Positions 7,297-29,318 of a stretch of DNA of 31,050 nucleotides are shown piece by piece. How positions within the stretch are numbered: the first letter of the stretch is position 1; each line of letters opens with the position of its first letter. The stretch spans positions 1-31,050 of IMG/VR virus record IMGVR_UViG_3300044490_000111. One strand, written 5' to 3'. The notes beneath the pieces were generated by a model, which made no database searches, had not been told where the DNA came from, and was given only the letters and a program-made list of their open reading frames with translations. The translations under genes were made by a program, and so were the position numbers. This DNA comes from a virus (lineage: Duplodnaviria; Caudoviricetes).

Positions 7297-9504
7297 TTAC
7301 ACTGCGTCCGGAACCAATGCGGCGATGTCCGCTCCGAGCTTCGAGAATCCACGGACGATCCATTCCGTCGCCGAAATGCACTCACAGATGAAATGGCTGT
7401 CCGCAACCAGGGCACATTCATTGGCCGTGCCATCGGAGTTCACGTCATTGATCTTGACGCCGCTCGACGCGACGGTCCGTAACTCGCAACCGGTCGCAGG
7501 CGTTACAATGCGGATCATCATGCCCACGACAGGTGCCGGCAGCGTAATGATCTTGTCGGCGTTGTCGCACGTCACAGTGATGTGCGACGCATTGCTGGGG
7601 ATCAGTCCTGTGGTGAGCCCATCGACGGTCGCGGTAACCGCCGTCGCCGTAACCTGAATCTTGGTACCCAACACGGCGGGGGTGAACGTAACCGTCTGCG
7701 CCCCGGTCGTCGTGCAGAAGACGATCAAATCACCCGCCCCATCCTTCACCGACAACGCATCCGCCAAATTGGTGGTCAACACCATTTCCGGCTGACCCGT
7801 CGTGCCAGTAAACGTCAAGTCAACGGCGCCCGTCAGAGTGATACCACCGTTTGCGCTGAGCAGACCGGTGATGCTCGTAGCGGGAGTAATCGCCACCGCC
7901 GGGGAACCCGTGGTGGTGGTGATGACAATGATATCCGCGGCAGAATCGCGGATACTGAGGGCGTCCGCCAAGTTGGTTGTCAGCACGACTTCCGACTGGC
8001 CCGTCGTCCCGGTGAACGTCAAGTCAACCGCACCGGGGATCGTGACACCACCCGTGGCGGTCAAGAGGCCCGTGATGCCAGTCGGTGGCGTGATGGTCAC
8101 AGTCGGACTGCCGGTGGTCGTCGCGATGACGATGATGTCGGCCGCACTGTCCTTGATCGACAAGGCATCGGCGAGATTGGTGGTCAGGTTGACTTGGCAC
8201 TGGCCCGTCGTGCCAGTGAACGTCAAGTCCTTGCCACCTCCGATCGTCACGTCACCGTTGAACGTAACCGCAGGCGTGAAAGTGATGACTTGCGAACCAG
8301 TGGTCAAGTCGAACACGATCAGGTCGCCGGCGCTGTCCTTCACTGATAGGGCGTCCGCCAGATTCGTGGTCAGCTTGATTTCCGGCTGACCCGTGGTCCC
8401 TTGGAAGTCGAGGTCCACTGCCCCGGACATGATGATGCCGCCAGAGAACGTCTTGATGGCGGAAATCGTCTGGGCCAGACCGATGAAGTCAAACGTGTCG
8501 CTCGCCGCCGCCGCGAAATCAGGGATGGTCAACGTCGGGGCACCACCCGTCTGTGCGGCGGTCGTGATTGTGATGGTCTCGGTCCCATCGTCGATCGGGA
8601 GGAACTTCAGGGCGCCCGACGTCTTGCCGTTGATCTGGACGTACCCAGTGTTCGTCTTGCCAGCCGCCGTGGTGATGCTGGGAGTGACCGCGGCAGTCAC
8701 GGTGACGGCACCTGACAGCTGGTTGGCGCCAGAGCTGGTCTTGAAGGTCCCGCTCGATCCGCTGAAATCATTGGAGCCGGAACCACTCGCCGTGAGTCCG
8801 GCAGAGATGACCGGGGCGCTCAGCGTCTTGTTCGCCAAGGTGGCCGCCAGCGTGTTGAACGCAAACGTGTCCGACACGCCGCCCATGTCGGGCACGGTCA
8901 AGGTTGCCGTCCCGGCTTGTGCCGCCGTCGTGACGGTGACCGTGAAGGCTGTGCCATCGGCTGCGGTCAGCTTCAGGGCACCAGAGGTCTTGCCGTTGAT
9001 CTGCAAGAAACCAGTGTTCGTCTTGCCAGCCGCCGTGATCAGACTCGGAGTCGCCGCTGCGGCGATCGTGACAGGGCCGGACAACGTGTTCGCGCCGGTG
9101 CATGACAGAAACGTTCCCGACGAACCGGACAGGTCGAAGTTTCCACTGGCAGAGGTGCACCCGTTGATCGTCGGATTGGTAAGCGTAACTGCGGAGTACG
9201 TTCCGCTATTGAAAAGGATGTCCCATCCTTCGGCTTGATCCAGAAACACGAGGCCGGACATGAGTGGCAGCACGGTCATCACCGTAGCCCCGTCCGCATC
9301 CTTGATGACAAGATTTTGCGTGGCAGAGGCGTTGATGAAGACGTAATGCAGTCCCGCTTGCCCATGCGGCTCTGGAAGATACACGGTGCGCGTGCCACCG
9401 GAGGGCGTCAATTTCTGCACGCGGAGCGAATCCAGCGTCAATGTGTCGTTGGCGGTCAGCGTTGCGGTCCGCGTGGACACGTCCATCGCAGTCAGATTGA
9501 TCAT
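7297..9504 (-). CDS. Thr/Gly/Ala-rich repetitive head fibre or decoration protein
   Basis: 735 aa with two 'AGKTNTG..QINGKTSGALK' repeats and four roughly 66-aa 'DL.F.GTTGQ....LTTNLADALS..D' repeats. It sits in the head module. Confidence 0.65.
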   Translation of the reverse strand: MINLTAMDVSTRTATLTANDTLTLDSLRVQKLTPSGGTRTVYLPEPHGQAGLHYVFINASATQNLVIKDADGATVMTVLPLMSGLVFLDQAEGWDILFNSGTYSAVTLTNPTINGCTSASGNFDLSGSSGTFLSCTGANTLSGPVTIAAAATPSLITAAGKTNTGFLQINGKTSGALKLTAADGTAFTVTVTTAAQAGTATLTVPDMGGVSDTFAFNTLAATLANKTLSAPVISAGLTASGSGSNDFSGSSGTFKTSSGANQLSGAVTVTAAVTPSITTAAGKTNTGYVQINGKTSGALKFLPIDDGTETITITTAAQTGGAPTLTIPDFAAAASDTFDFIGLAQTISAIKTFSGGIIMSGAVDLDFQGTTGQPEIKLTTNLADALSVKDSAGDLIVFDLTTGSQVITFTPAVTFNGDVTIGGGKDLTFTGTTGQCQVNLTTNLADALSIKDSAADIIVIATTTGSPTVTITPPTGITGLLTATGGVTIPGAVDLTFTGTTGQSEVVLTTNLADALSIRDSAADIIVITTTTGSPAVAITPATSITGLLSANGGITLTGAVDLTFTGTTGQPEMVLTTNLADALSVKDGAGDLIVFCTTTGAQTVTFTPAVLGTKIQVTATAVTATVDGLTTGLIPSNASHITVTCDNADKIITLPAPVVGMMIRIVTPATGCELRTVASSGVKINDVNSDGTANECALVADSHFICECISATEWIVRGFSKLGADIAALVPDAV

Positions 9505-20313: not shown

Positions 20314-20348
20314 GGTAGTGTCCTAATTTGAAAGACACGGTAGGTCAC
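20314..20348 (+). repeat. Left terminal inverted repeat
   Basis: GGTAGTGTCCTAATTTGAAAGACACGGTAGGTCAC. Confidence 0.95.
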
Positions 20349-20387
20349 GGGAGTGTCCCATCGGTCGCGTTTTGTAAACCCTTCCTG

Positions 20388-20654
20388 TTAGGTAGCTCTG
20401 TCTTCGGCAGGCGGATTCTCCGGGGGCACGTCGGATCCGCCGGGACTCTCTGGCCCCCACGCATCCGGGCCCCATGCGAGACTTGCCAGCGCTTTGTCGT
20501 CTTCCGTCTGCGGCGGTTCTTTGGGCTTCAACGCCAGGTCCGCCTCCAAAATCGCCTTCGCCCCCGCGCAAATCCGGTCCAACTGCTCAGGACTCAGCCG
20601 ATAGTCCGGGTTCGGAACATGCGGCTTGTGGGACCGCTCGTCGTCTGTGGACAT
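20388..20654 (-). CDS. Small protein homologous to the nested ORF at 26825-27052
   Basis: 88 aa with GGAG RBS. Positions 20464-20588 match 26853-26977 at 114 of 125 nt. Confidence 0.7.
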   Translation of the reverse strand: MSTDDERSHKPHVPNPDYRLSPEQLDRICAGAKAILEADLALKPKEPPQTEDDKALASLAWGPDAWGPESPGGSDVPPENPPAEDRAT

Positions 20655-20673
20655 GGCAAGGTCTCCAGATGGG

Positions 20674-23541
20674 TTAGGCTTGGGCGCGTTCCAGGTTCAG
20701 TGCCAAGAGCGCCGCCAACAGGTCATCATCGGTCATCGCTGGGTCCCAGCCGTAGGCGGCAAAGACGGCAGCGTCGAGTCTCTGGTGAGCTAGACTGAGC
20801 CACGTGTCGCCCCTGTTATACAGTTCCGTCAGCGTCCGTTGTTTCAGTTCCTTGGCGCATTCCGCGTCCTTGGGAACCAGCCGCGGATAGCGGACTGTGC
20901 CGATGCCTCGGTGGTCCGGCTCGTGCACGTACCGTGCCCACGGTCCCGTGGTGCTGCCGGGGAATTCCAACACCTCTTCCCGCGTCCACTCCGGCGGGTT
21001 CAGCCAGTTGGAGCGAAGTCGGTCTAACTCCTGCGCCGCTTCTGCAATCGCGTCGCGCTGCTCGTCTGCCGGCTTGGGGAACGGGAAGGTTTCAAAACAG
21101 GTTGTGGGGGTGTAACGGGGACGGGTCTCCAGTCGCGTGCCAAGTCGCAAGCCCCAAACCTCGTGCACACGCGAGTGCAACACGCCAAGAAAGCAGTCTT
21201 GCGCGGCTGCAAGGACAATCAGCTGATGATCGGGCAGCGTCGGTGATTCGGCCCAGAGAAACAATCGGTGCTTGGAAACCGTTGTCGTAATGAGGAACCG
21301 ACTCAAGCCTGCGAGTTTCGCGCGCATGCCGCTTCGTGGCTCCACATGTAACCACCACCTCTTTCGATAAGACTCGCGTTTGTTCCCTTGCCGCTCCGGG
21401 TACACATGGTCGCGCACGTACTCAAACGGGGCTTCGTATTGTGAGGCATCCAGTAACGTTGATTCGGTGCCAAAGTCGATAATCCACACGCCACGGTTGC
21501 GGCGGGTAATATCCAGTCCGTTGGCCCACGGCAACACGACGTCACTATTCGGACGTCCGTGGGGAGTTGGTGTTCGCAGGAACTGCAAGGCTTGTCCAGC
21601 CGTGATGTCAAAGGCCCCGCCTTTGGTGTCGCCCATGTAACTAATGTCTAGGTTTGCCGTCAACCGCGCGGCTTGCGTGATGTCCGCCGCTGCTGACAAG
21701 TTGGCGTTGACCGTTCGCACCTTGTGCCCATCGAGAACCAAGTCCTTTTCGGTCCCGTCGTCAAATCCGACCATGCTGACGTGGACGTTGGCCCCGTTCA
21801 GAATCCAGTCGCGATCGCTCTCAGCGAAGAAAATTCCACCGCTCTCCTTGATCCTGGCTAACGTGTCCCGATTGGCACCGCCACGAATGCCTTGGGTCGC
21901 CAGCAGCCCGGCGCGACGGCACTTGCCTTCCTTGACTTGCGAGCGTGCCTTTTCAAACCAGTAGCAGCACAAGTCCGCTTCCGGTCGTACTCGCTCGCCC
22001 CAGAGACGGAACATCGCGTCGACGTATTCGTCGCCCAGATTCGAGCGGAGCAGCTTCCCTCCCAGGAACGGCGGGTTGCCGACGATGAAATCAGCCGCGG
22101 GCCATGTGGGCTCTTTCGGATTCTGCGGGTCGCTCAGGTCCAAGATGGCGTCCATGTGCTGGATGCTCTCGATGGGCTCCAGCACGGGTCTCAGGTTGGG
22201 AGTGAATCCATTGTCCCGTAGCCACTGCAGATAGCCGATCCAGATTGCCACTTGCGCCAGTTCTTGGGCGTACCGATTGATGTCTAGTCCGTGCAGTTGC
22301 GTTGGGCTGATGCGCGGCAACTGAGCAATTCCGTAGCTTCTGCCAAACGAGTAGACTTCCTTCCCAAGCTCCAGAAGCAGACGCAGCGTCACATACAGAA
22401 AATTCCCCGACCCACACGCTGGGTCGAGCACCGTGACATCCGCCAGCCGCTCCATGAAGTCCAACAGCAGGCGGTCGAACTTCTGACGAACCTTTGACTC
22501 TCTCCCCGTCTTCCCGCGCTTGAACTTCGGAATCAGTGCCTCGCATTGTCGGCGCACGTCGTCCCACTCTCGACGCAAAGGCACCATCACGACAGGATTC
22601 ACTATCGTCTCGATGTCGCCGCGGCTGGTGTAGTGGGCACCGATCTGAGCGCGCTTGTCGGGATCAAGTAGCCGTTCGAACAACGTTCCAAAAATGGATG
22701 GTTCGATTGATCCCCAATCCATCGCTACAACATCGACCAGGACGTTGATTTCCTTTTCCAGCAACGGAATGACCTCGGCGTCGGCAAACAGACCCCCATT
22801 GAAGTAGGCAATGTCATCCGTTCCGAATGTCCCCCCGTTGGACATAGCTTCAAACAAATCAGAGAGCATTTTGCCGAGTCTTGTCGGGTCCTTTCGCGAT
22901 CCTGCCAGTAGCCGAGAGAAGACCTGGTTGGGAAGTAGCTCGATGTCTTCGGCGAACATGCAGAAGATCAGCTTCATCAGAAAATGCGCTGCTTCCTGCG
23001 ATGGCACTTTGCGTACTCGCATCCCGTCTGCTATCTGGCCAAACCGCTCAGCAGCCTGCTTTGTGACGCCCTCCCTGGTCACTCCGGGTTTCAGTGACTC
23101 AGGATCCGTGAATACCCTGCGAAGAATGTCCAGATTCTTCGGATCGGCTAGCCCGGCTAGGTCGAAGGTATATACCTTCTTGGGGGTATCGTTGAAGTTG
23201 GTGTGGACTTCGAACCGGTCCATGTCACAAACGACGAGCAGTTTCGGGTTCTCCAGGGACTCCCGGTATTGGAGCAACTGGGCGTAGGCAGCCTTTAGGT
23301 CTTTCTTCTTTCCCTTGTACTCCCAGCCGAAGTGCCCGCGCATCCACACGTCAGCCCAGCCGTCGCCGCCGCCGGTCTTCTGGACGCCCCGCTCAAAGGT
23401 GTACCACGCCCCTTGCGGGTCCGCCGCCGCTGGCTTGGGCTGCTGGAGCAATTCGCACAGGTCCAGGAAATGCTGTTGGCAGGCGGAACGTTCCGACAGC
23501 GTGACGTGTTTCCACTTGCGGGTGAATTCGTCGACGTCCAT
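20674..23541 (-). CDS. MmeI-like type IIG/IIL restriction-modification enzyme (nuclease + adenine MTase + TRD)
   Basis: 955 aa. N-terminal 'ADVW...EYK....AY.QL' nuclease motif, motif I DPACGSGNF, motif IV NPPF, C-terminal 'RYTP..CFETFPFP' and 'RTLT.LYN'. Confidence 0.92.
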   Translation of the reverse strand: MDVDEFTRKWKHVTLSERSACQQHFLDLCELLQQPKPAAADPQGAWYTFERGVQKTGGGDGWADVWMRGHFGWEYKGKKKDLKAAYAQLLQYRESLENPKLLVVCDMDRFEVHTNFNDTPKKVYTFDLAGLADPKNLDILRRVFTDPESLKPGVTREGVTKQAAERFGQIADGMRVRKVPSQEAAHFLMKLIFCMFAEDIELLPNQVFSRLLAGSRKDPTRLGKMLSDLFEAMSNGGTFGTDDIAYFNGGLFADAEVIPLLEKEINVLVDVVAMDWGSIEPSIFGTLFERLLDPDKRAQIGAHYTSRGDIETIVNPVVMVPLRREWDDVRRQCEALIPKFKRGKTGRESKVRQKFDRLLLDFMERLADVTVLDPACGSGNFLYVTLRLLLELGKEVYSFGRSYGIAQLPRISPTQLHGLDINRYAQELAQVAIWIGYLQWLRDNGFTPNLRPVLEPIESIQHMDAILDLSDPQNPKEPTWPAADFIVGNPPFLGGKLLRSNLGDEYVDAMFRLWGERVRPEADLCCYWFEKARSQVKEGKCRRAGLLATQGIRGGANRDTLARIKESGGIFFAESDRDWILNGANVHVSMVGFDDGTEKDLVLDGHKVRTVNANLSAAADITQAARLTANLDISYMGDTKGGAFDITAGQALQFLRTPTPHGRPNSDVVLPWANGLDITRRNRGVWIIDFGTESTLLDASQYEAPFEYVRDHVYPERQGNKRESYRKRWWLHVEPRSGMRAKLAGLSRFLITTTVSKHRLFLWAESPTLPDHQLIVLAAAQDCFLGVLHSRVHEVWGLRLGTRLETRPRYTPTTCFETFPFPKPADEQRDAIAEAAQELDRLRSNWLNPPEWTREEVLEFPGSTTGPWARYVHEPDHRGIGTVRYPRLVPKDAECAKELKQRTLTELYNRGDTWLSLAHQRLDAAVFAAYGWDPAMTDDDLLAALLALNLERAQA

Positions 23542-23547
23542 GCCGCC

Positions 23548-23575
23548 AAGGTAATCGCGGCAATGCGCCCGTCAA
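23548..23575 (-). promoter_or_regulatory. Promoter for the RM gene, probably producing a leaderless mRNA
   Basis: TTGACG-N16-TACCTT ends 6 nt before the ATG; no SD sequence. Confidence 0.45.
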
Positions 23576-23584
23576 GCGGGGAGT

Positions 23585-24473
23585 CTACCCGTACTGGACG
23601 ATCGTGCTGAAGAATTCCTCGAAGCTCCACAGGTGGTCCGTCAGGCCAGCCATCATCGCCGCGGTCGGGCGCCGCTTGCCCGCCCTGCCGCTGCCGTCCG
23701 GATACCGCGTCCGCCAAGACGGCGACCGCTGCCGCTAGGCACTCAAACTTCTTTGAGAACCCCAGCGCCAACCGGGCGAACCGCTTCATAAATGTGCGGA
23801 TCGTCAGGTTGTGTCGCTCGACATGGCTCGTGCAAATGTCCCACTCGGAGAACTGCCCCTTGACCACCTTCCGCTGCGTCCCGACTATCTCGGACGGCGT
23901 GTAGGGCATCGAGGCGTTGCGGAAGTCTTTGATGATCTGCCCGTACTTGGCGTAGGGGCCGAACGCCAGGTCAACGGCTTCCGGGTAGGCGGCAAAGCCG
24001 TCCGTGCTCAGGCGGATAACCGTCTGGTAGCCGCCAGTCTGGAAAGCGTGCGGGTCTGAACTGTGCGGGTTCGGCCAGCTGACCCGCGCGGCCAAGTCCA
24101 TCAGGAAGCGCCGTGCCATGTCCGCCGACCGCTTGCCAAGGGCGTAGCAGGCAAGCAGCTTCGTGTCTTCGTCGATGGCGGTGAACAAGTACACGTCGCC
24201 AATCGTGCCGCTCAGTTGCTTCTGCTCGGTCGTCAGTTTGTCCTGCTTCTTGCCGACGAACGTCCAGATTTCATCACACTCGACGTGCCGCAGCGTCAGA
24301 CCCTGAAGACGTTCGTCCAGGAAGTTACGGGCGCACTCGCCAAGCCGCACTATCAGCCGCCCAATGCTGTCCCGGTGCACCCCCGTGATTCGCTCTGTCG
24401 AACGAATCGAGTTGCCCTCGCAGAGCAGCCGCAGGACCATCATTCTCGTGGCGAGCTTCAGCGTGTTAGCCAT
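23585..24473 (-). pseudogene. IS1-family DDE transposase, frameshifted near the C-terminus
   Basis: HTH 'EGNSIRSTERITGVH' and catalytic motifs 'DEIW', 'TDG..AY', 'VERHN.TIR'. After 'LAAAVAV' (about 23717) the usual YNF segment is missing, and the tail 'TAAMMAGLTDHLWSFEE' is in another frame ending at 23585. Confidence 0.85.
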
Positions 24474-24562
24474 TGCCGTCTTGACCTCCAATAGCTATTC
24501 GTGTAATACGAAAACCTCTTGGGCGGATTCGCTCGGAATTGCTGTAATACAGGAACCTCGTC

Positions 24563-24805
24563 ATGCCGAAGAAACGCAAGGTCGGGCGTCCCAAGGGCGA
24601 CCCGAAAAAGAACCGGTCGGAAATCGTCCTGCTCAGACTCACCAAAGCTGAACGGGTCCACCTGGAACGCGCCGCTGGCGGAAATCTGTCCGACTGGATG
24701 CGGCACGTTCTCTTGCCAGCGGCAGGACGTGCCCATAAAACGAAAGACGGAAAGCGTGGGAATCGAACCCCATCAGCGAACGCTGAGCCTCTGGGCGGCT
24801 TATAG
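24563..24805 (+). CDS. Small ribbon-helix-helix-like DNA-binding protein, divergent from the transposase
   Basis: 'GRPK...LLRLT..E...LERAA...LSDWMR..LL'. The last roughly 19 codons overlap the tRNA on the other strand. Confidence 0.7.
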   Translation: MPKKRKVGRPKGDPKKNRSEIVLLRLTKAERVHLERAAGGNLSDWMRHVLLPAAGRAHKTKDGKRGNRTPSANAEPLGGL

Positions 24806-24840
24806 AGCCGCTGCGCCAACCAGGACGCAGGACGCCTTCC
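24748..24840 (-). tRNA. Non-canonical 9/3 tRNA (allo-tRNA-like), anticodon UAU, long variable arm, discriminator G
   Basis: Acceptor GGAAGGCGT/ACGCTTTCC (9 bp); D arm TGCGTC-CTGGTT-GGCGCA; anticodon arm GCGGC-TCTATAA-GCCGC; variable arm TCAGC-GTTC-GCTGA; T arm GGG-TTCGATT-CCC. No encoded CCA. Confidence 0.8.
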
Positions 24841-24845
24841 ACCGC

Positions 24846-25245
24846 GGCGCCCGTGGTCATTCGCCACGGGCGCCCAGTTTTCCAGAATCCAGGGCTTGTC
24901 TATGGGGTCGTTTCGTGGTAGCCTAAACGACGAACCCTGAGCGGTACGTCGCCACATGGCGCGTTTCCTTGCACAAGACAACGATGGGTTCCACGGGCCG
25001 CATACGCTGCAACGGATGCGGCCCACGTCATTGACGACGGTACGCACGGTCATCCGTGCCCGTCGCGAGTAAGACGAATCGCGAGAAGCATTCTGCACCT
25101 CCTTTCTGGGTTGTGCATGTGCAAACCCTCCGCGAATGACCGACTTGGCGGATTCAGGCTGCCAACCGTTGCCCGCCATGCCGGAAGCTACCGGGTGGGA
25201 TTACAGACGGCCCGATGACTCCCCGGTGAGTCGTTGGGCCGCTTC
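24846..25245 (-). ncRNA. Hairpin-rich region upstream of the tRNA (possible precursor or regulatory RNA)
   Basis: Stems at 24846-24874 (perfect 11 bp), about 24907-24931, 24995-25024, 25035-25065, 25108-25128 and 25208-25241. Confidence 0.45.
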
Positions 25246-25340
25246 TATTTTGCCGACACCTCGTCTGACGAGCCGTTCTGCGAACACGGTCTGAGGCAAG
25301 AAGAATCCGAGCCCCCACCAAGGAACGGCCAGTGTTCGGA

Positions 25341-25372
25341 AATCAGTACGGCCTATCCTGGAAATTTGTCAA
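25341..25372 (-). promoter_or_regulatory. Promoter-like motif pointing into the hairpin/tRNA region
   Basis: TTGACAAATTTCCAGGATAGGCCGTACTGATT. Confidence 0.55.
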
Positions 25373-25387
25373 TAGGGGTCCCGCGGC

Positions 25388-25425
25388 AAGAAACGAAAAA
25401 TGCCGCTGGCTTGCCCAGCGGCATT
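25388..25425 (-). terminator. Intrinsic terminator just inside the right end of the IS
   Basis: AATGCCGCTGG-GCAAG-CCAGCGGCATT followed by TTTCGTTTCTT. Confidence 0.75.
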
Positions 25426-25444
25426 CATCTGGCACGTGCCAGGT

Positions 25445-25479
25445 GTGACCTACCGTGTCTTTCAAATTAGGACACTACC
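25445..25479 (-). repeat. Right terminal inverted repeat
   Basis: Exact reverse complement of 20314-20348. Confidence 0.95.
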
Positions 25480-28400
25480 GTTTTCGGCGGCGATGCCGCG
25501 CCTTCCCCCTTGTGCGCAAACTGCCCGCCGGTCTCCCGCGGATGTTCCTCTTCCCGCCAGTCTGGATCGGACTCCAGCACGCGGTTGTGACTGATTGCAC
25601 CAAGGCTCTCCACCATGCGTCGCTTTGCCGCCCACTTGCGTAGCGGACCCACGTCCCCTGCCTCCAGCCACGCGCGGAACTGCGGCATGGTCAACGCGGT
25701 CACCGGACCACACTGCCAGCCGTCCTGGTAGTTCGCAAGGTAGCCGTCGACCGCCTCTTGCTTCGTCAGGAACCCGACCATCACCTTGTGCTCGTCGAAC
25801 CCGCCATGCTGGTCGCTCTGGTCAACCACAAACACCAGCTCCGCTTCCGGATGCGGTCCCAGGAAGACGTCCACCGCGTCGCCGTCCGCCCCCTTGGTCT
25901 TCCTTCCGCCAACCTTGGCGATGTAGCCGTAGTCCCACGCCAGCTCCGATTTCCAAGGAACGCCTTCCGGAGAGACACCCCGGCGAATCGAACCCTTTGG
26001 ATTCTCAATTGCGATGTTCAGCCCCTGGACGTCGACGTGGCCCTTGGCGTAGCGACCGGATTTCCGCTGGGCATCCGTCAGTTCTGTATCCGTTCTGGCA
26101 GCAGCCAGCCTGATCGCTGTTGGCAGGTCTAACCCATTGCTACTTGCTTGCGCCTCCACCACAAACCGCGGAATTCCGTTCATTGTTCGCCAAGTGCGCG
26201 ACTCAGCGACCCTGACTCGCCCGGCCAGCATCCACAGCGGGACGTCGCCCTTTACCTGAGCCCCATGCCCATACGCCAACGAATCAGCCAGAGTGTTCCC
26301 GACTTGGCGCTCGGCGAACATCCTCTGGTTTTTCAGCTGGTCCGTATCGGGAACCAACTGTGAAATCGGGACATCGACGGCGTGGACGGCGATGTCTTGA
26401 CCGGGATACGCCATCTGGCCGAAGGTTTTCGCCATTCCAGGGTATAGCGACAGCGAGACGTATCCCGAGCGACTCTGTAGACTATGGCGCCGCTTGCCGC
26501 TCGTCTTCAGAATACCTTGCCCTTCAATGTCGTGCTTGGCGGCTGTCCCGTGGTACATCCGCAGCTTGGGACCACCCGAGAACGACGGCGGTTTCGCCCG
26601 CTGTTCTTTCAACCACGCGCTCAGCCGCTTCACGCCTTCGGGAGATGGATCAGCGTAAAACACGTCATCCCATTGGCGATCGTTCGTCAAATCGAAAGAC
26701 CCTTCATCCAGGTCTGGAGCGTGTACCTTGTCCGCTCGCTGGTAGCCTCCCTTGGCCCAGCGACCGCGATTGTCCCGTGGCTGGTCTTCGTCGTAGGCTT
26801 CGGCCACGAATCGCGGCATCCCGTTCAGGAGCTGCCACCTGGACCATAGGCTTCCGGGCCCCATGCCAGACTCGCCAACACCTTGTCGTCGTCTGTCTTG
26901 GGCGGTTCCTTGGGCTTCAACGCCCGGTCCGCCTCCAAAATCGCCTTCGCCCCCGCGCAAATCCGGTCCAACTGCTCCGCGCTGAGAACTAGCGACTCCT
27001 GCTTCCGCGAAGACGGCTTGCTTGACGGCTTGGATTGTCCGTTGCCTGACATCGGTCTTCTCCTTTTTCCCCTTTGCGGCTTTGTACTCACCCGCCCCGG
27101 CGTTGATGGCATCGGAAATCGGACCCTTCCGATTCACGAGCGTGTCGTACACAGTAAGTATTCGCTCGGCTTCGTCCGCTATTCGGCGATTTTCCTCCAG
27201 ATTCAGTACATTCCCAGCCCCGGCGACCGCTTCGGCCCTACGCTTCGACGCAACCGCTAGAAAATCGCGCACCTCCCTAGACATGTCCATCCGGATCGCC
27301 GACTTCAGCTCGTTCCGCGGAACGAACAGGCTTTCCGCGGATTCAATGTCTTCCATCCCAGGCAGAAATCCCCCCTTTCTGCCGGGCGCAGGTTCAACCC
27401 GCGGTGTCTCAGCCATCTCCCGCGACATCTCAGCGACGACCTTCAGGCTCGTTTCCTTGCCATCTTCGTCTCGCTTGGCAAGCAACCGAAACAGCTGATC
27501 CTGTAAATCGTGGTCCTTCAGGTGTTCGCCCACGGCAAGGGCCACATCCTTGTCGAGCAGCCCACGAACTAGATCGTCGAACGCCCGGTTACTCAGACCC
27601 TGCAACACCATCGCCTCTGACGCCAGCCCGCCTTTCAAGCTTACGCCGCGCTTGGCAAATTCATCCGGTGTCGCCTTGGAGTCCCGCAGAAACTTGGCGG
27701 CGTCGATCGCCGTTCCCTGCCCCTCTGCGATGTTTGTCAGGGCGCCCAACGCTCGGGCCTCGACCGCTGTCTTGGCTTCATCGTTGTCAATGTACCGGAT
27801 AGCCAAGTTGTCAACGCCCAATCTCCGCGCCAGCTCCAAGCGATGATGACCATTCACCACGTAGGTCTTGCCATCCTCCGGGTCCCGCCACACGCTGATG
27901 ACGCCAGCAAAGTTCGGGTTCCAGACTTTGACCGACTTCAACTTGTCGGTCACGCCTTCCTTGTCCACGTTCTGCTTGAACTGGAACCTGTCGGGGTCGA
28001 CTTGCAATCCGGACGTTGGGCAGTTGTAGACGTAGCCCTTGGTGATTTCTCCACCGCTCCAAGGCTGCTTGCCTTCTGCCCTGGCGCTGCCTTTTGGCTT
28101 GTCGGATTCCCGGACTGATACGGGCGCTTCCGGTTGTCGCAACTGGCGTTCAATCTCGGTCGCCGTCTCGTCGCTCGCCACCCTCCAGAACGACTTGCCG
28201 CTTGGCCGAAACTGCCACTTGCCGCCTTCAATCTTGACGTCGGATGCCTTACCGTGAACAGTGACTTGTGGTGGCGCATTCTTCGCCACAAACTGCCCGG
28301 CATTCTCTGGCTGACCGCGGGGATGCTCAGCTGAATCCCAGGATTCCACCAAGCGGTTACAGCCGTTCATGCGCAGCCACCGCGCACGCGACTCATTGAC

Positions 28401-29318
28401 TCGCTCCCCTCGTCCAATTTCGTCCCAGATTTGGTCGAGCAACGCCAGGTCTACGTCACTGTCAGATTCCACGGGACGCCCATCGCCGACCGGTTGTGAC
28501 GACAGTGACTCTGCCACGGTGTGCCTCTTGCGGGCAAGGTACTCAGTGAAGACGCGGCGTGACAAACTCCCTTCCGACAAGTCGAATGCTGCGTCCATCG
28601 TCACGCCATGCCGGTCCCACCAGTCCCGCCCATCGGCCGTCTTGAACAGGTCGCTTAGGCGGCTTGCGTTTGGAAATTGCCACTTGACCTGCTTGGCGTT
28701 GTCCAGGTCTTCAACGGCGCAGTCGAACCCGAGTCTGGGCCACACCTTGTAGCCGATCGCCTTGCGCTCTCCGCTGTCGGCTCGCTCCGCAATCAGTTCG
28801 ATCCGCTTGGCGCCGGCGCGCGATGCGCTCGCGACTAGGCTCTCCATCGCCCGAGTCATCGTGCCTCGCCCCTGACGTGATTCGTCGACGTAGGCATCGG
28901 CGATCGTTACGACCATTCCATCTTCCGGCGTTTTCTTCACCTGATACAGCAACGTGTAGTCGTCAGTCGCCATCTTGATGTGGACGTACTGTGTTCCGGA
29001 TGAAGCCACGGTCACTTCGGCAGTTTCATCCCAGTCGATTCCGACGATGCCTGCTAAGTCTTCTGGCTTGGCGCCTTTCCCAAGCATCGCGACCGCCGTC
29101 TTCTCGGGACACGATCCAACAACCTCGATTGGAGACCCCCGGCGCCGCGTCTCCCAGCCCTTGACGGCGCCTCCCGTCGTCCCGTACTCCGCGATGAAGC
29201 GCGGCGTGCCGTTGCGAACACGCCATCGCTTCGTCAGCCCCGTGGCGGCGCTTGGACGATACGCCGATACGTTCGGCAGATGGCCTGGAGTTACAGCGCA
29301 CGTCTCAGCGAGCGACAT
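25467..29318 (-). CDS. Large polyvalent protein B: GNAT + ParB-like + ART-like + inorganic pyrophosphatase domains
   Basis: 1283 aa. GNAT 'VDESRQGRG...GYKVWPRLGF'; ParB-like 'DPDRFQFK...YVVNGHHRL'; ART-like 'MYHGT...GYVSLS'; pyrophosphatase 'IENPKGS.R.G...DYGYI...GADGD.VDVF.G...FDEHKVM.GF'. Confidence 0.85.
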   Translation of the reverse strand: MSLAETCAVTPGHLPNVSAYRPSAATGLTKRWRVRNGTPRFIAEYGTTGGAVKGWETRRRGSPIEVVGSCPEKTAVAMLGKGAKPEDLAGIVGIDWDETAEVTVASSGTQYVHIKMATDDYTLLYQVKKTPEDGMVVTIADAYVDESRQGRGTMTRAMESLVASASRAGAKRIELIAERADSGERKAIGYKVWPRLGFDCAVEDLDNAKQVKWQFPNASRLSDLFKTADGRDWWDRHGVTMDAAFDLSEGSLSRRVFTEYLARKRHTVAESLSSQPVGDGRPVESDSDVDLALLDQIWDEIGRGERVNESRARWLRMNGCNRLVESWDSAEHPRGQPENAGQFVAKNAPPQVTVHGKASDVKIEGGKWQFRPSGKSFWRVASDETATEIERQLRQPEAPVSVRESDKPKGSARAEGKQPWSGGEITKGYVYNCPTSGLQVDPDRFQFKQNVDKEGVTDKLKSVKVWNPNFAGVISVWRDPEDGKTYVVNGHHRLELARRLGVDNLAIRYIDNDEAKTAVEARALGALTNIAEGQGTAIDAAKFLRDSKATPDEFAKRGVSLKGGLASEAMVLQGLSNRAFDDLVRGLLDKDVALAVGEHLKDHDLQDQLFRLLAKRDEDGKETSLKVVAEMSREMAETPRVEPAPGRKGGFLPGMEDIESAESLFVPRNELKSAIRMDMSREVRDFLAVASKRRAEAVAGAGNVLNLEENRRIADEAERILTVYDTLVNRKGPISDAINAGAGEYKAAKGKKEKTDVRQRTIQAVKQAVFAEAGVASSQRGAVGPDLRGGEGDFGGGPGVEAQGTAQDRRRQGVGESGMGPGSLWSRWQLLNGMPRFVAEAYDEDQPRDNRGRWAKGGYQRADKVHAPDLDEGSFDLTNDRQWDDVFYADPSPEGVKRLSAWLKEQRAKPPSFSGGPKLRMYHGTAAKHDIEGQGILKTSGKRRHSLQSRSGYVSLSLYPGMAKTFGQMAYPGQDIAVHAVDVPISQLVPDTDQLKNQRMFAERQVGNTLADSLAYGHGAQVKGDVPLWMLAGRVRVAESRTWRTMNGIPRFVVEAQASSNGLDLPTAIRLAAARTDTELTDAQRKSGRYAKGHVDVQGLNIAIENPKGSIRRGVSPEGVPWKSELAWDYGYIAKVGGRKTKGADGDAVDVFLGPHPEAELVFVVDQSDQHGGFDEHKVMVGFLTKQEAVDGYLANYQDGWQCGPVTALTMPQFRAWLEAGDVGPLRKWAAKRRMVESLGAISHNRVLESDPDWREEEHPRETGGQFAHKGEGAASPPKTVVS
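26825..27052 (-). CDS. Small out-of-frame gene nested inside polyprotein B
   Basis: AAGGAG lies 7 nt before the ATG at 27052; 75 aa. Differences from the copy at 20388-20654 are mostly synonymous in this frame. Confidence 0.65.
   Translation of the reverse strand: MSGNGQSKPSSKPSSRKQESLVLSAEQLDRICAGAKAILEADRALKPKEPPKTDDDKVLASLAWGPEAYGPGGSS

Follow-up and report, generated by a model that had tools for sequence, protein, structure and literature searches.

A small gene lies in the +1 frame of a phage polyprotein, over the end of a ParB-like domain and the linker that follows it, and we hold it to be almost certainly real. Its product quite probably binds the domain that it adjoins. Linkers of giant virion proteins are treated as filler; the one considered here encodes a conserved protein family, and its peptide is a candidate partner for an uncharacterised ParB-like domain, which makes the role of such polyvalent domains testable.

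The nested gene

The window, i.e. the whole stretch of 31,050 nucleotides that was analysed, comes from a phage and includes a capsid gene together with two polyproteins of the polyvalent type. One of these, polyprotein B (25467–29318, minus strand, 1283 aa), has the composition of a polyvalent protein, with an InPase, a weakly matched GNAT-like and a ParB-like domain in one polypeptide and the capsid and head genes nearby. Between its domains, the motifs NG.PRF.(A/V)E and VES recur, which we take to be head-protease sites; they flank the ParB-like module at aa 323–333 and 835–843. The domain itself spans aa 428–773 (27000–28037, minus strand) and consists of a nucleotide-binding fold with the sequence NGHHR (GxxR), an HTH-like region and a C-terminal helical bundle.

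The nested ORF has 75 codons in the +1 frame of polyprotein B (26825–27052, minus strand; ATG at 27052, TGA at 26825). A Shine-Dalgarno (SD)-like AAGGAG (27060–27065, minus strand), which the polyprotein reads as Lys-Glu, is located 7 nt before the ATG, and the frame is likely translated from its own start. The N-terminus of the ORF is rich in Ser, Pro and Lys and overlaps the last helix of the ParB-like domain, and over the linker it encodes a conserved LS.EQ..R helix and a C-terminal DDDKVLASL segment. The other polyprotein frames of the window contain no second convincing nested gene.

Two further features of the window can be mentioned. A short acidic segment of polyprotein B, SDSDVDLALLDQIWDEIG, follows the GNAT-like domain at aa 283–310 (about 28390–28470, minus strand) and is bounded by ES motifs; it is possibly an in-frame partner of that domain. 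Elsewhere, a 735-aa Thr/Gly-rich protein (7297–9504) with repeats of ca 68 residues is likely a virion fibre or decoration protein.

Conservation at homologous loci

Scans with the domain gave 199 loci, two of the scans contributing the best 80 of 281 and the best 80 of 363. With the window added, 188 of the 200 loci have a near-complete domain, and 140 were left below 85% identity. Enough flanking sequence is available for 135 loci, 106 of which (the window included) read through the site, while 29 end within 90 codons.

At the last helix, an SD sequence of at least 4 nt, a start and at least 30 open +1 codons occur together in 63–67 of the 106 read-through loci. Thirteen control windows give 5–14 of 106, and the +2 frame at the same site gives none in 106. 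The +1 frame is free of stops over codons 0–35 in 87 of the 106, compared to 21–41 in 14 windows inside the domain, and its stops peak near codon 50. The combined signal of SD, start and open frame is also found in 18 of the 29 loci where the host gene ends. A permissive call gave 100 short ORFs in 137 representatives, with a median of 62 codons, an ATG start in 84 and an SD of at least 4 nt in 88, these counts including a few probable chance ORFs (L101, L116, L039). The sequence-only reading had named the loss of the nested start and SD, or stops in the frame, among homologues as evidence against the gene. As the counts show, the signals are kept in 63–67 of 106 read-through loci, and 31 of the 137 representatives have no ORF at the site. 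Of these 31 loci, 30 retain NGH[HN]R, and a displaced copy (E<0.05) is present in just three within the 0.3–3 kb examined; the partner does thus not always stand beside an intact effector, and the peptide is not obligatory in the manner of a classical antitoxin.

About 100 divergent loci carry the frame, in viral contigs, metagenomes and genomes of several phyla. As the ORF turns up in all parts of the domain tree (FastTree), with repeated losses, we suggest that it is ancestral.

Selection was evaluated in both frames, as had been proposed, for 18 independent read-through pairs with a frame-blind DNA alignment. Over the linker, dN/dS is 0.45 in the +1 frame vs 1.37 in the host frame, and over the domain it is 0.13 in the host frame vs 1.67 in the +1 frame. 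The value of 0.45 is moderate, and counted pair by pair the sign test barely reaches significance (p=0.049, with 13 of 17 informative pairs in agreement).

The peptides form a family with the core (Y/F)xKLSxEExxRxL; outside the clade of the window there is no conservation of the C-terminal segment, which the complex model described below lays near the pocket and which thus counts against the inhibitor reading. In cross-validation, 83 of 100 held-out peptides scored above all 20 of their own shuffles, and the window peptide reached 24.9 bits vs 8.0 for its shuffles, in a test that is generous as shuffling also erases a compositional gradient. The family profile gave only three matches in protein searches, neither the nested peptide nor its paralogue described below belongs to a Pfam or PHROG family, and all matches in the ESM Atlas scored below 0.9 and were left out of account. 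In searches with the single peptide sequence, the sole true match is that paralogue. A match in L001 was rejected as chance low-complexity similarity and one to P0124 as an unrelated repeat protein. Among 401 genomes from a single host phylum, seven weak matches (E 1e-4 to 9e-4) were likewise attributed to chance, since they lay in longer open frames and the domain was missing. For one peptide subfamily, a degenerate DNA pattern gave no match.

The paralogue in the insertion sequence

An IS1-family element (20314–25479), recognised by its DDE_Tnp_IS1 transposase and 35-nt perfect terminal inverted repeats (20314–20348 and 25445–25479), is inserted in the last codons of polyprotein B. It carries a stand-alone paralogue of the nested gene (20388–20654, minus strand, 88 aa; ATG at 20654, TAA at 20388), and directly upstream of it, as a passenger, an MmeI-like restriction-modification gene (20674–23541, minus strand). 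The paralogue has GGAG (20663–20666) 8 nt upstream of its ATG, so that each copy indeed has its own SD and start, as stated by the sequence-only reading. The transposase (23606–24491, minus strand) is broken near its C-terminus by a frame change, with ca 23 residues unmatched, and the element is therefore probably fixed in place. The insertion flanks match at 7 of 9 positions in the window, and the relatives L201 and L207 have exact 8-nt duplications. No contig joining across the element was seen in the lake runs, where contigs show presence and not absence.

In this IS family, varied passengers run up to the end of the element, many of them closed by the inverted-repeat stop; among the IS ends L201–L264, many passenger ORFs end in ...SN through this stop inside the repeat. 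The frame of polyprotein B likewise ends in the inverted repeats, as does the off-frame of the small IS gene. A 79-aa ORF with a GRPK motif (24563–24805, plus strand), conserved in related IS elements, is likely a small DNA-binding regulator. The peptide is not a standard companion of MmeI, since none of the 31 loci with the MmeI C-terminus (among 41 retrieved) has it, nor a regular passenger of this IS family, being absent from all 64 loci examined.

We now consider what the two copies can tell about selection. The differences reported earlier were reproduced: there are 11 differences in 125 nt between 26853–26977 and 20464–20588. When these are read as EQLDRICAGAKAILEAD...LASLAWGP (the EQLDR frame), 11 codons differ, seven of them synonymously and the others as R/L, K/Q, D/E and V/A, while in the polyprotein frame nine codons differ and seven of these change the residue. 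The differences are clustered, with none in the first 52 nt and 11 in the next 73 (Fisher p=0.0026), and the 52-nt tract (26926–26977, minus strand) is identical to 20537–20588. A conserved RNA structure was rejected as the cause of this identity (z −0.04).

Each copy occurs on contigs from several lake runs, with comparable depth; of the four runs, three may be the window's own source. A second allele of the IS small gene (window 20433–20619) is present in three of four runs, with roughly one-third of the depth. Seven of its ten isolated substitutions fall at third positions, six of these being synonymous (codon effects by hand), and its two indels compensate each other; by these signs in the sequence, the IS gene itself keeps its frame.

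Since the second allele differs from the polyprotein copy inside the 52-nt tract, the tract looks like a recent, and we think likely, gene conversion between the copies. Furthermore, the IS copy lies outside any polyprotein, as a TGA closes the polyprotein-type frame just upstream of the shared segment. With one copy free-standing and the pair a mosaic, the pair alone cannot show selection inside the polyprotein, and its synonymous excess could stem from the lineage of the IS copy alone. The claim that selection acts on the nested frame is thus upheld by the homologue dN/dS values and the positional conservation, and the argument from the copy pair is by itself insufficient. The simplest reading is that the element captured the paralogue from a related phage module and then exchanged sequence with the resident copy, the IS copy being a captured, partly homogenised paralogue and not an independent witness. 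It may add to the antidote dose for the phage, or may once have protected a host.

The host domain and the predicted complex

The model of the host domain has a pLDDT of 84.9, and its structure matches Noc, ParB and KorB (best E 1.7e-5; TM 0.33/0.45 for Noc/ParB). NGHHR aligns to GERR of ParB, and LTNIAEG to IENVQR (E 0.16), and G63 and R66 of the domain are invariant in 56 of 56 members. The canonical ParB motifs are altered, with GHHRLEL in place of GERRxRA and LTN in place of IEN. The Box III glutamate, which is catalytic in ParB, is not retained, whereas GxxR is. No ParB-type Pfam match was obtained in the window (E<=0.05) or in any of the 56 members (E<=0.01), and no ParA family member is found among the 18 window proteins scanned. 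On the basis of the modelled fold and GxxR, we assign the domain to the ParB/Srx (ParB-CTPase fold) superfamily, and because no Pfam ParB model matches any of the 56 members, we do not file it as DdrB-ParB. Nucleotide choice is described as unpredictable from sequence (PMC12704722).

Scans that started from the peptide found the domain directly upstream in 9 of 9 viral loci, two of the contigs being new, which bears out the proposed linkage between the two. The complex model scores 0.72, compared to 0.00 for the best of three controls; the mark used for this score is reached by 116 of 157 solved complexes and by two of 215 mismatched pairs, and is rough with our own alignments. The runs share at least 90% of their contacts, and the pLDDT of the partner is at least 72. 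Residues 27–39 of the peptide are placed on domain helix 96–107 (the Box III helix) and on the HTH turn 127–132, and residues 53–68 over domain residues 35–46 (the Box I region), beside G63, H65 and R66, which are themselves among the contacts. Nearly all residues of this modelled interface are present in the IS copy.

Of the earlier proposal of a partner or antidote for the domain, the partner thus gains from both the linkage and a complex model that passes its controls, binding being predicted. The model is silent on the direction of the effect, and the peptide is a putative antidote. If the domain is toxic and the peptide neutralises it, the two would form a putative effector-immunity pair.

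At loci where the polyprotein is extended, family-like peptides are sometimes also located 0.3–1.3 kb downstream of the domain end (L098, L167 and L124, and more weakly L165 and L108). There they form genes of their own or the last part of the following small ORF. In L019, L166, L030 and L023, the host gene ends and the +1 ORF continues for at least 300 codons, so that the next large protein begins with the peptide, followed in three of them by a FAE motif. This arrangement would place the peptide in the virion pathway.

Proposed mechanism and alternatives

On balance we favor, with some reserve, a mechanism in which the peptide is a cognate inhibitor from late infection that keeps a virion-packaged ParB-like effector off in the producer cell. 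The peptide would be translated from the late polyprotein mRNA and, as the model predicts, would cover the adjoining domain's nucleotide pocket, presumably inhibiting the domain. The ParB module would be freed by head-protease cleavage and enter the head, and the processed module could then reach the next host without its partner and act there. As to the history, the small gene would be older, overlapping the end of a ParB-terminated gene, and the linker would be an overprinted frame because the polyprotein later read through that gene. This suggests that a polyprotein is extended when it reads through the small partner gene belonging to the module before it.

The peptide could instead be a positive cofactor. 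It might act on the clamp as a latch or loader, much like KorA with KorB, or as a chaperone that helps the module to fold. The domain fold matches KorB, ParB and Noc, the peptide in the model touches both the nucleotide domain and the HTH-like turn (residues 119–132), KorA is described as latching KorB (PMC11790492), and the peptide heads the next large protein in L019, L166, L030 and L023. The model, however, covers GxxR and the Box III helix, while KorA docks on the DNA-binding domain (PMC11790492), and the peptide has no recognised DNA-binding domain, so we consider such a role unlikely, although worth keeping in mind. It is less probable still that the gene is real but its product targets a host protein or the virion, the ParB linkage being only physical co-inheritance. 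The 31 of 137 loci without an ORF at the site would fit this, as would the family-like peptides 0.3–1.3 kb downstream of the domain end and the paralogue behind the MmeI-like gene, whose second allele keeps the frame. Nevertheless, the domain is upstream of every strong peptide-first match, the peptide occurs in none of the 31 MmeI-like loci and none of the 64 loci with the same IS end, and the complex model passes its controls.

Two alternatives concern the gene itself, and we give both very little weight. Ribosomal frameshifting into the +1 frame would provide the ParB module with an alternative C-terminus, and the open frame does start inside the last helix, where it would fuse cleanly. However, the starts and SD-like sites peak at the 5′ end (84 of 100 ATG, 88 of 100 SD of at least 4 nt), and free-standing versions exist in the IS and in L098, L165 and L167. 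In the other, no more credible, alternative, the frame is a non-functional relic copied from the IS passenger, or is open owing to the codon bias of the helix and linker. It is true that the 52-nt tract is identical to the IS copy 6.4 kb away, and that the N-terminal third is of low complexity, as expected of helix codons read out of frame. Against this, some 100 divergent homologues have the frame but not the IS, selection is seen when read-through pairs are compared, and no unusual RNA structure (z −0.04) is there to explain the conservation. The relic reading is thus largely refuted by the positional conservation and dN/dS.

Returning to the peptide as a cognate inhibitor, a wider scheme can be formulated, which we put forward as a tentative idea with the odds against it: polyvalent virion proteins hide inhibitors of their own effectors in the off-frames of linkers, the peptide plugs the ParB-fold pocket, and the IS with its restriction-modification gene is a mobile neutralising cassette. 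If true, such a cassette could neutralise the effector of an incoming phage. A peptide covering the nucleotide pocket of a ParB fold would also be a tool for studying such switches.

Relation to known systems

The lambda spanins Rz/Rz1 are a case of a same-strand +1 embedded phage gene whose product binds that of the host gene; these are membrane lysis proteins, with no sequence or functional relation to the nested peptide. Type II toxin-antitoxin and toxin-immunity systems have a small downstream, translationally coupled gene. Similarly, the small partner would here, according to the model, cover the active site of the effector; unlike in those systems, it is missing at the site in 31 of 137 loci, and it has no family match.

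Polyvalent proteins are described as combining GNAT, InPase, ART and a ParB/Srx-superfamily domain without ParA, and as proposed to be packaged and processed and to act at an early stage of infection (PMC5512222). Their ParB domains are proposed there to be packaged and early-acting, as nucleases under NTP control or as sensors of NTP (Iyer et al. 2017, PMC5512222). Like the DdrB-like ParB polyvalent proteins, the present one is a giant multi-domain protein among virion genes (PMC5512222), but its domain has no Pfam ParB match (0 of 56) and contains extra HTH-like and helical parts. The words 'overlap' and 'linker' are absent from the main text of that article (PMC5512222). KorB–KorA of plasmid RK2 is likewise presented as a ParB-fold protein with a smaller dedicated partner, KorA being a repressor that sits on DNA and latches the clamp at its DNA-binding domain (PMC11790492). 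The present peptide, on the other hand, has its reading frame within the gene of the effector, and the model places it on the nucleotide pocket.

A drifting linker with a conserved other frame is also described for the HBV polymerase spacer/PreS and the ASGV linker/movement protein, and the HBV linker frame is proposed to have arisen over an older short gene (PMC8227390). Unlike these eukaryotic viruses, the present case concerns a bacterial phage and a predicted direct partner of the adjacent domain. Searches of the main texts of the open-licence literature brought up no account of a gene nested in a polyvalent protein, nor of a peptide that occupies a ParB pocket.

Finally, P-loop domains that we take to be zeta-toxin-like are located at the polyprotein ends of L028 (4865–5341), L012 (4935), L108 (5181), L107 (5698) and L010 (5955), each followed by a small downstream or overlapping ORF. 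These loci suggest that an effector with a small partner is a general module.
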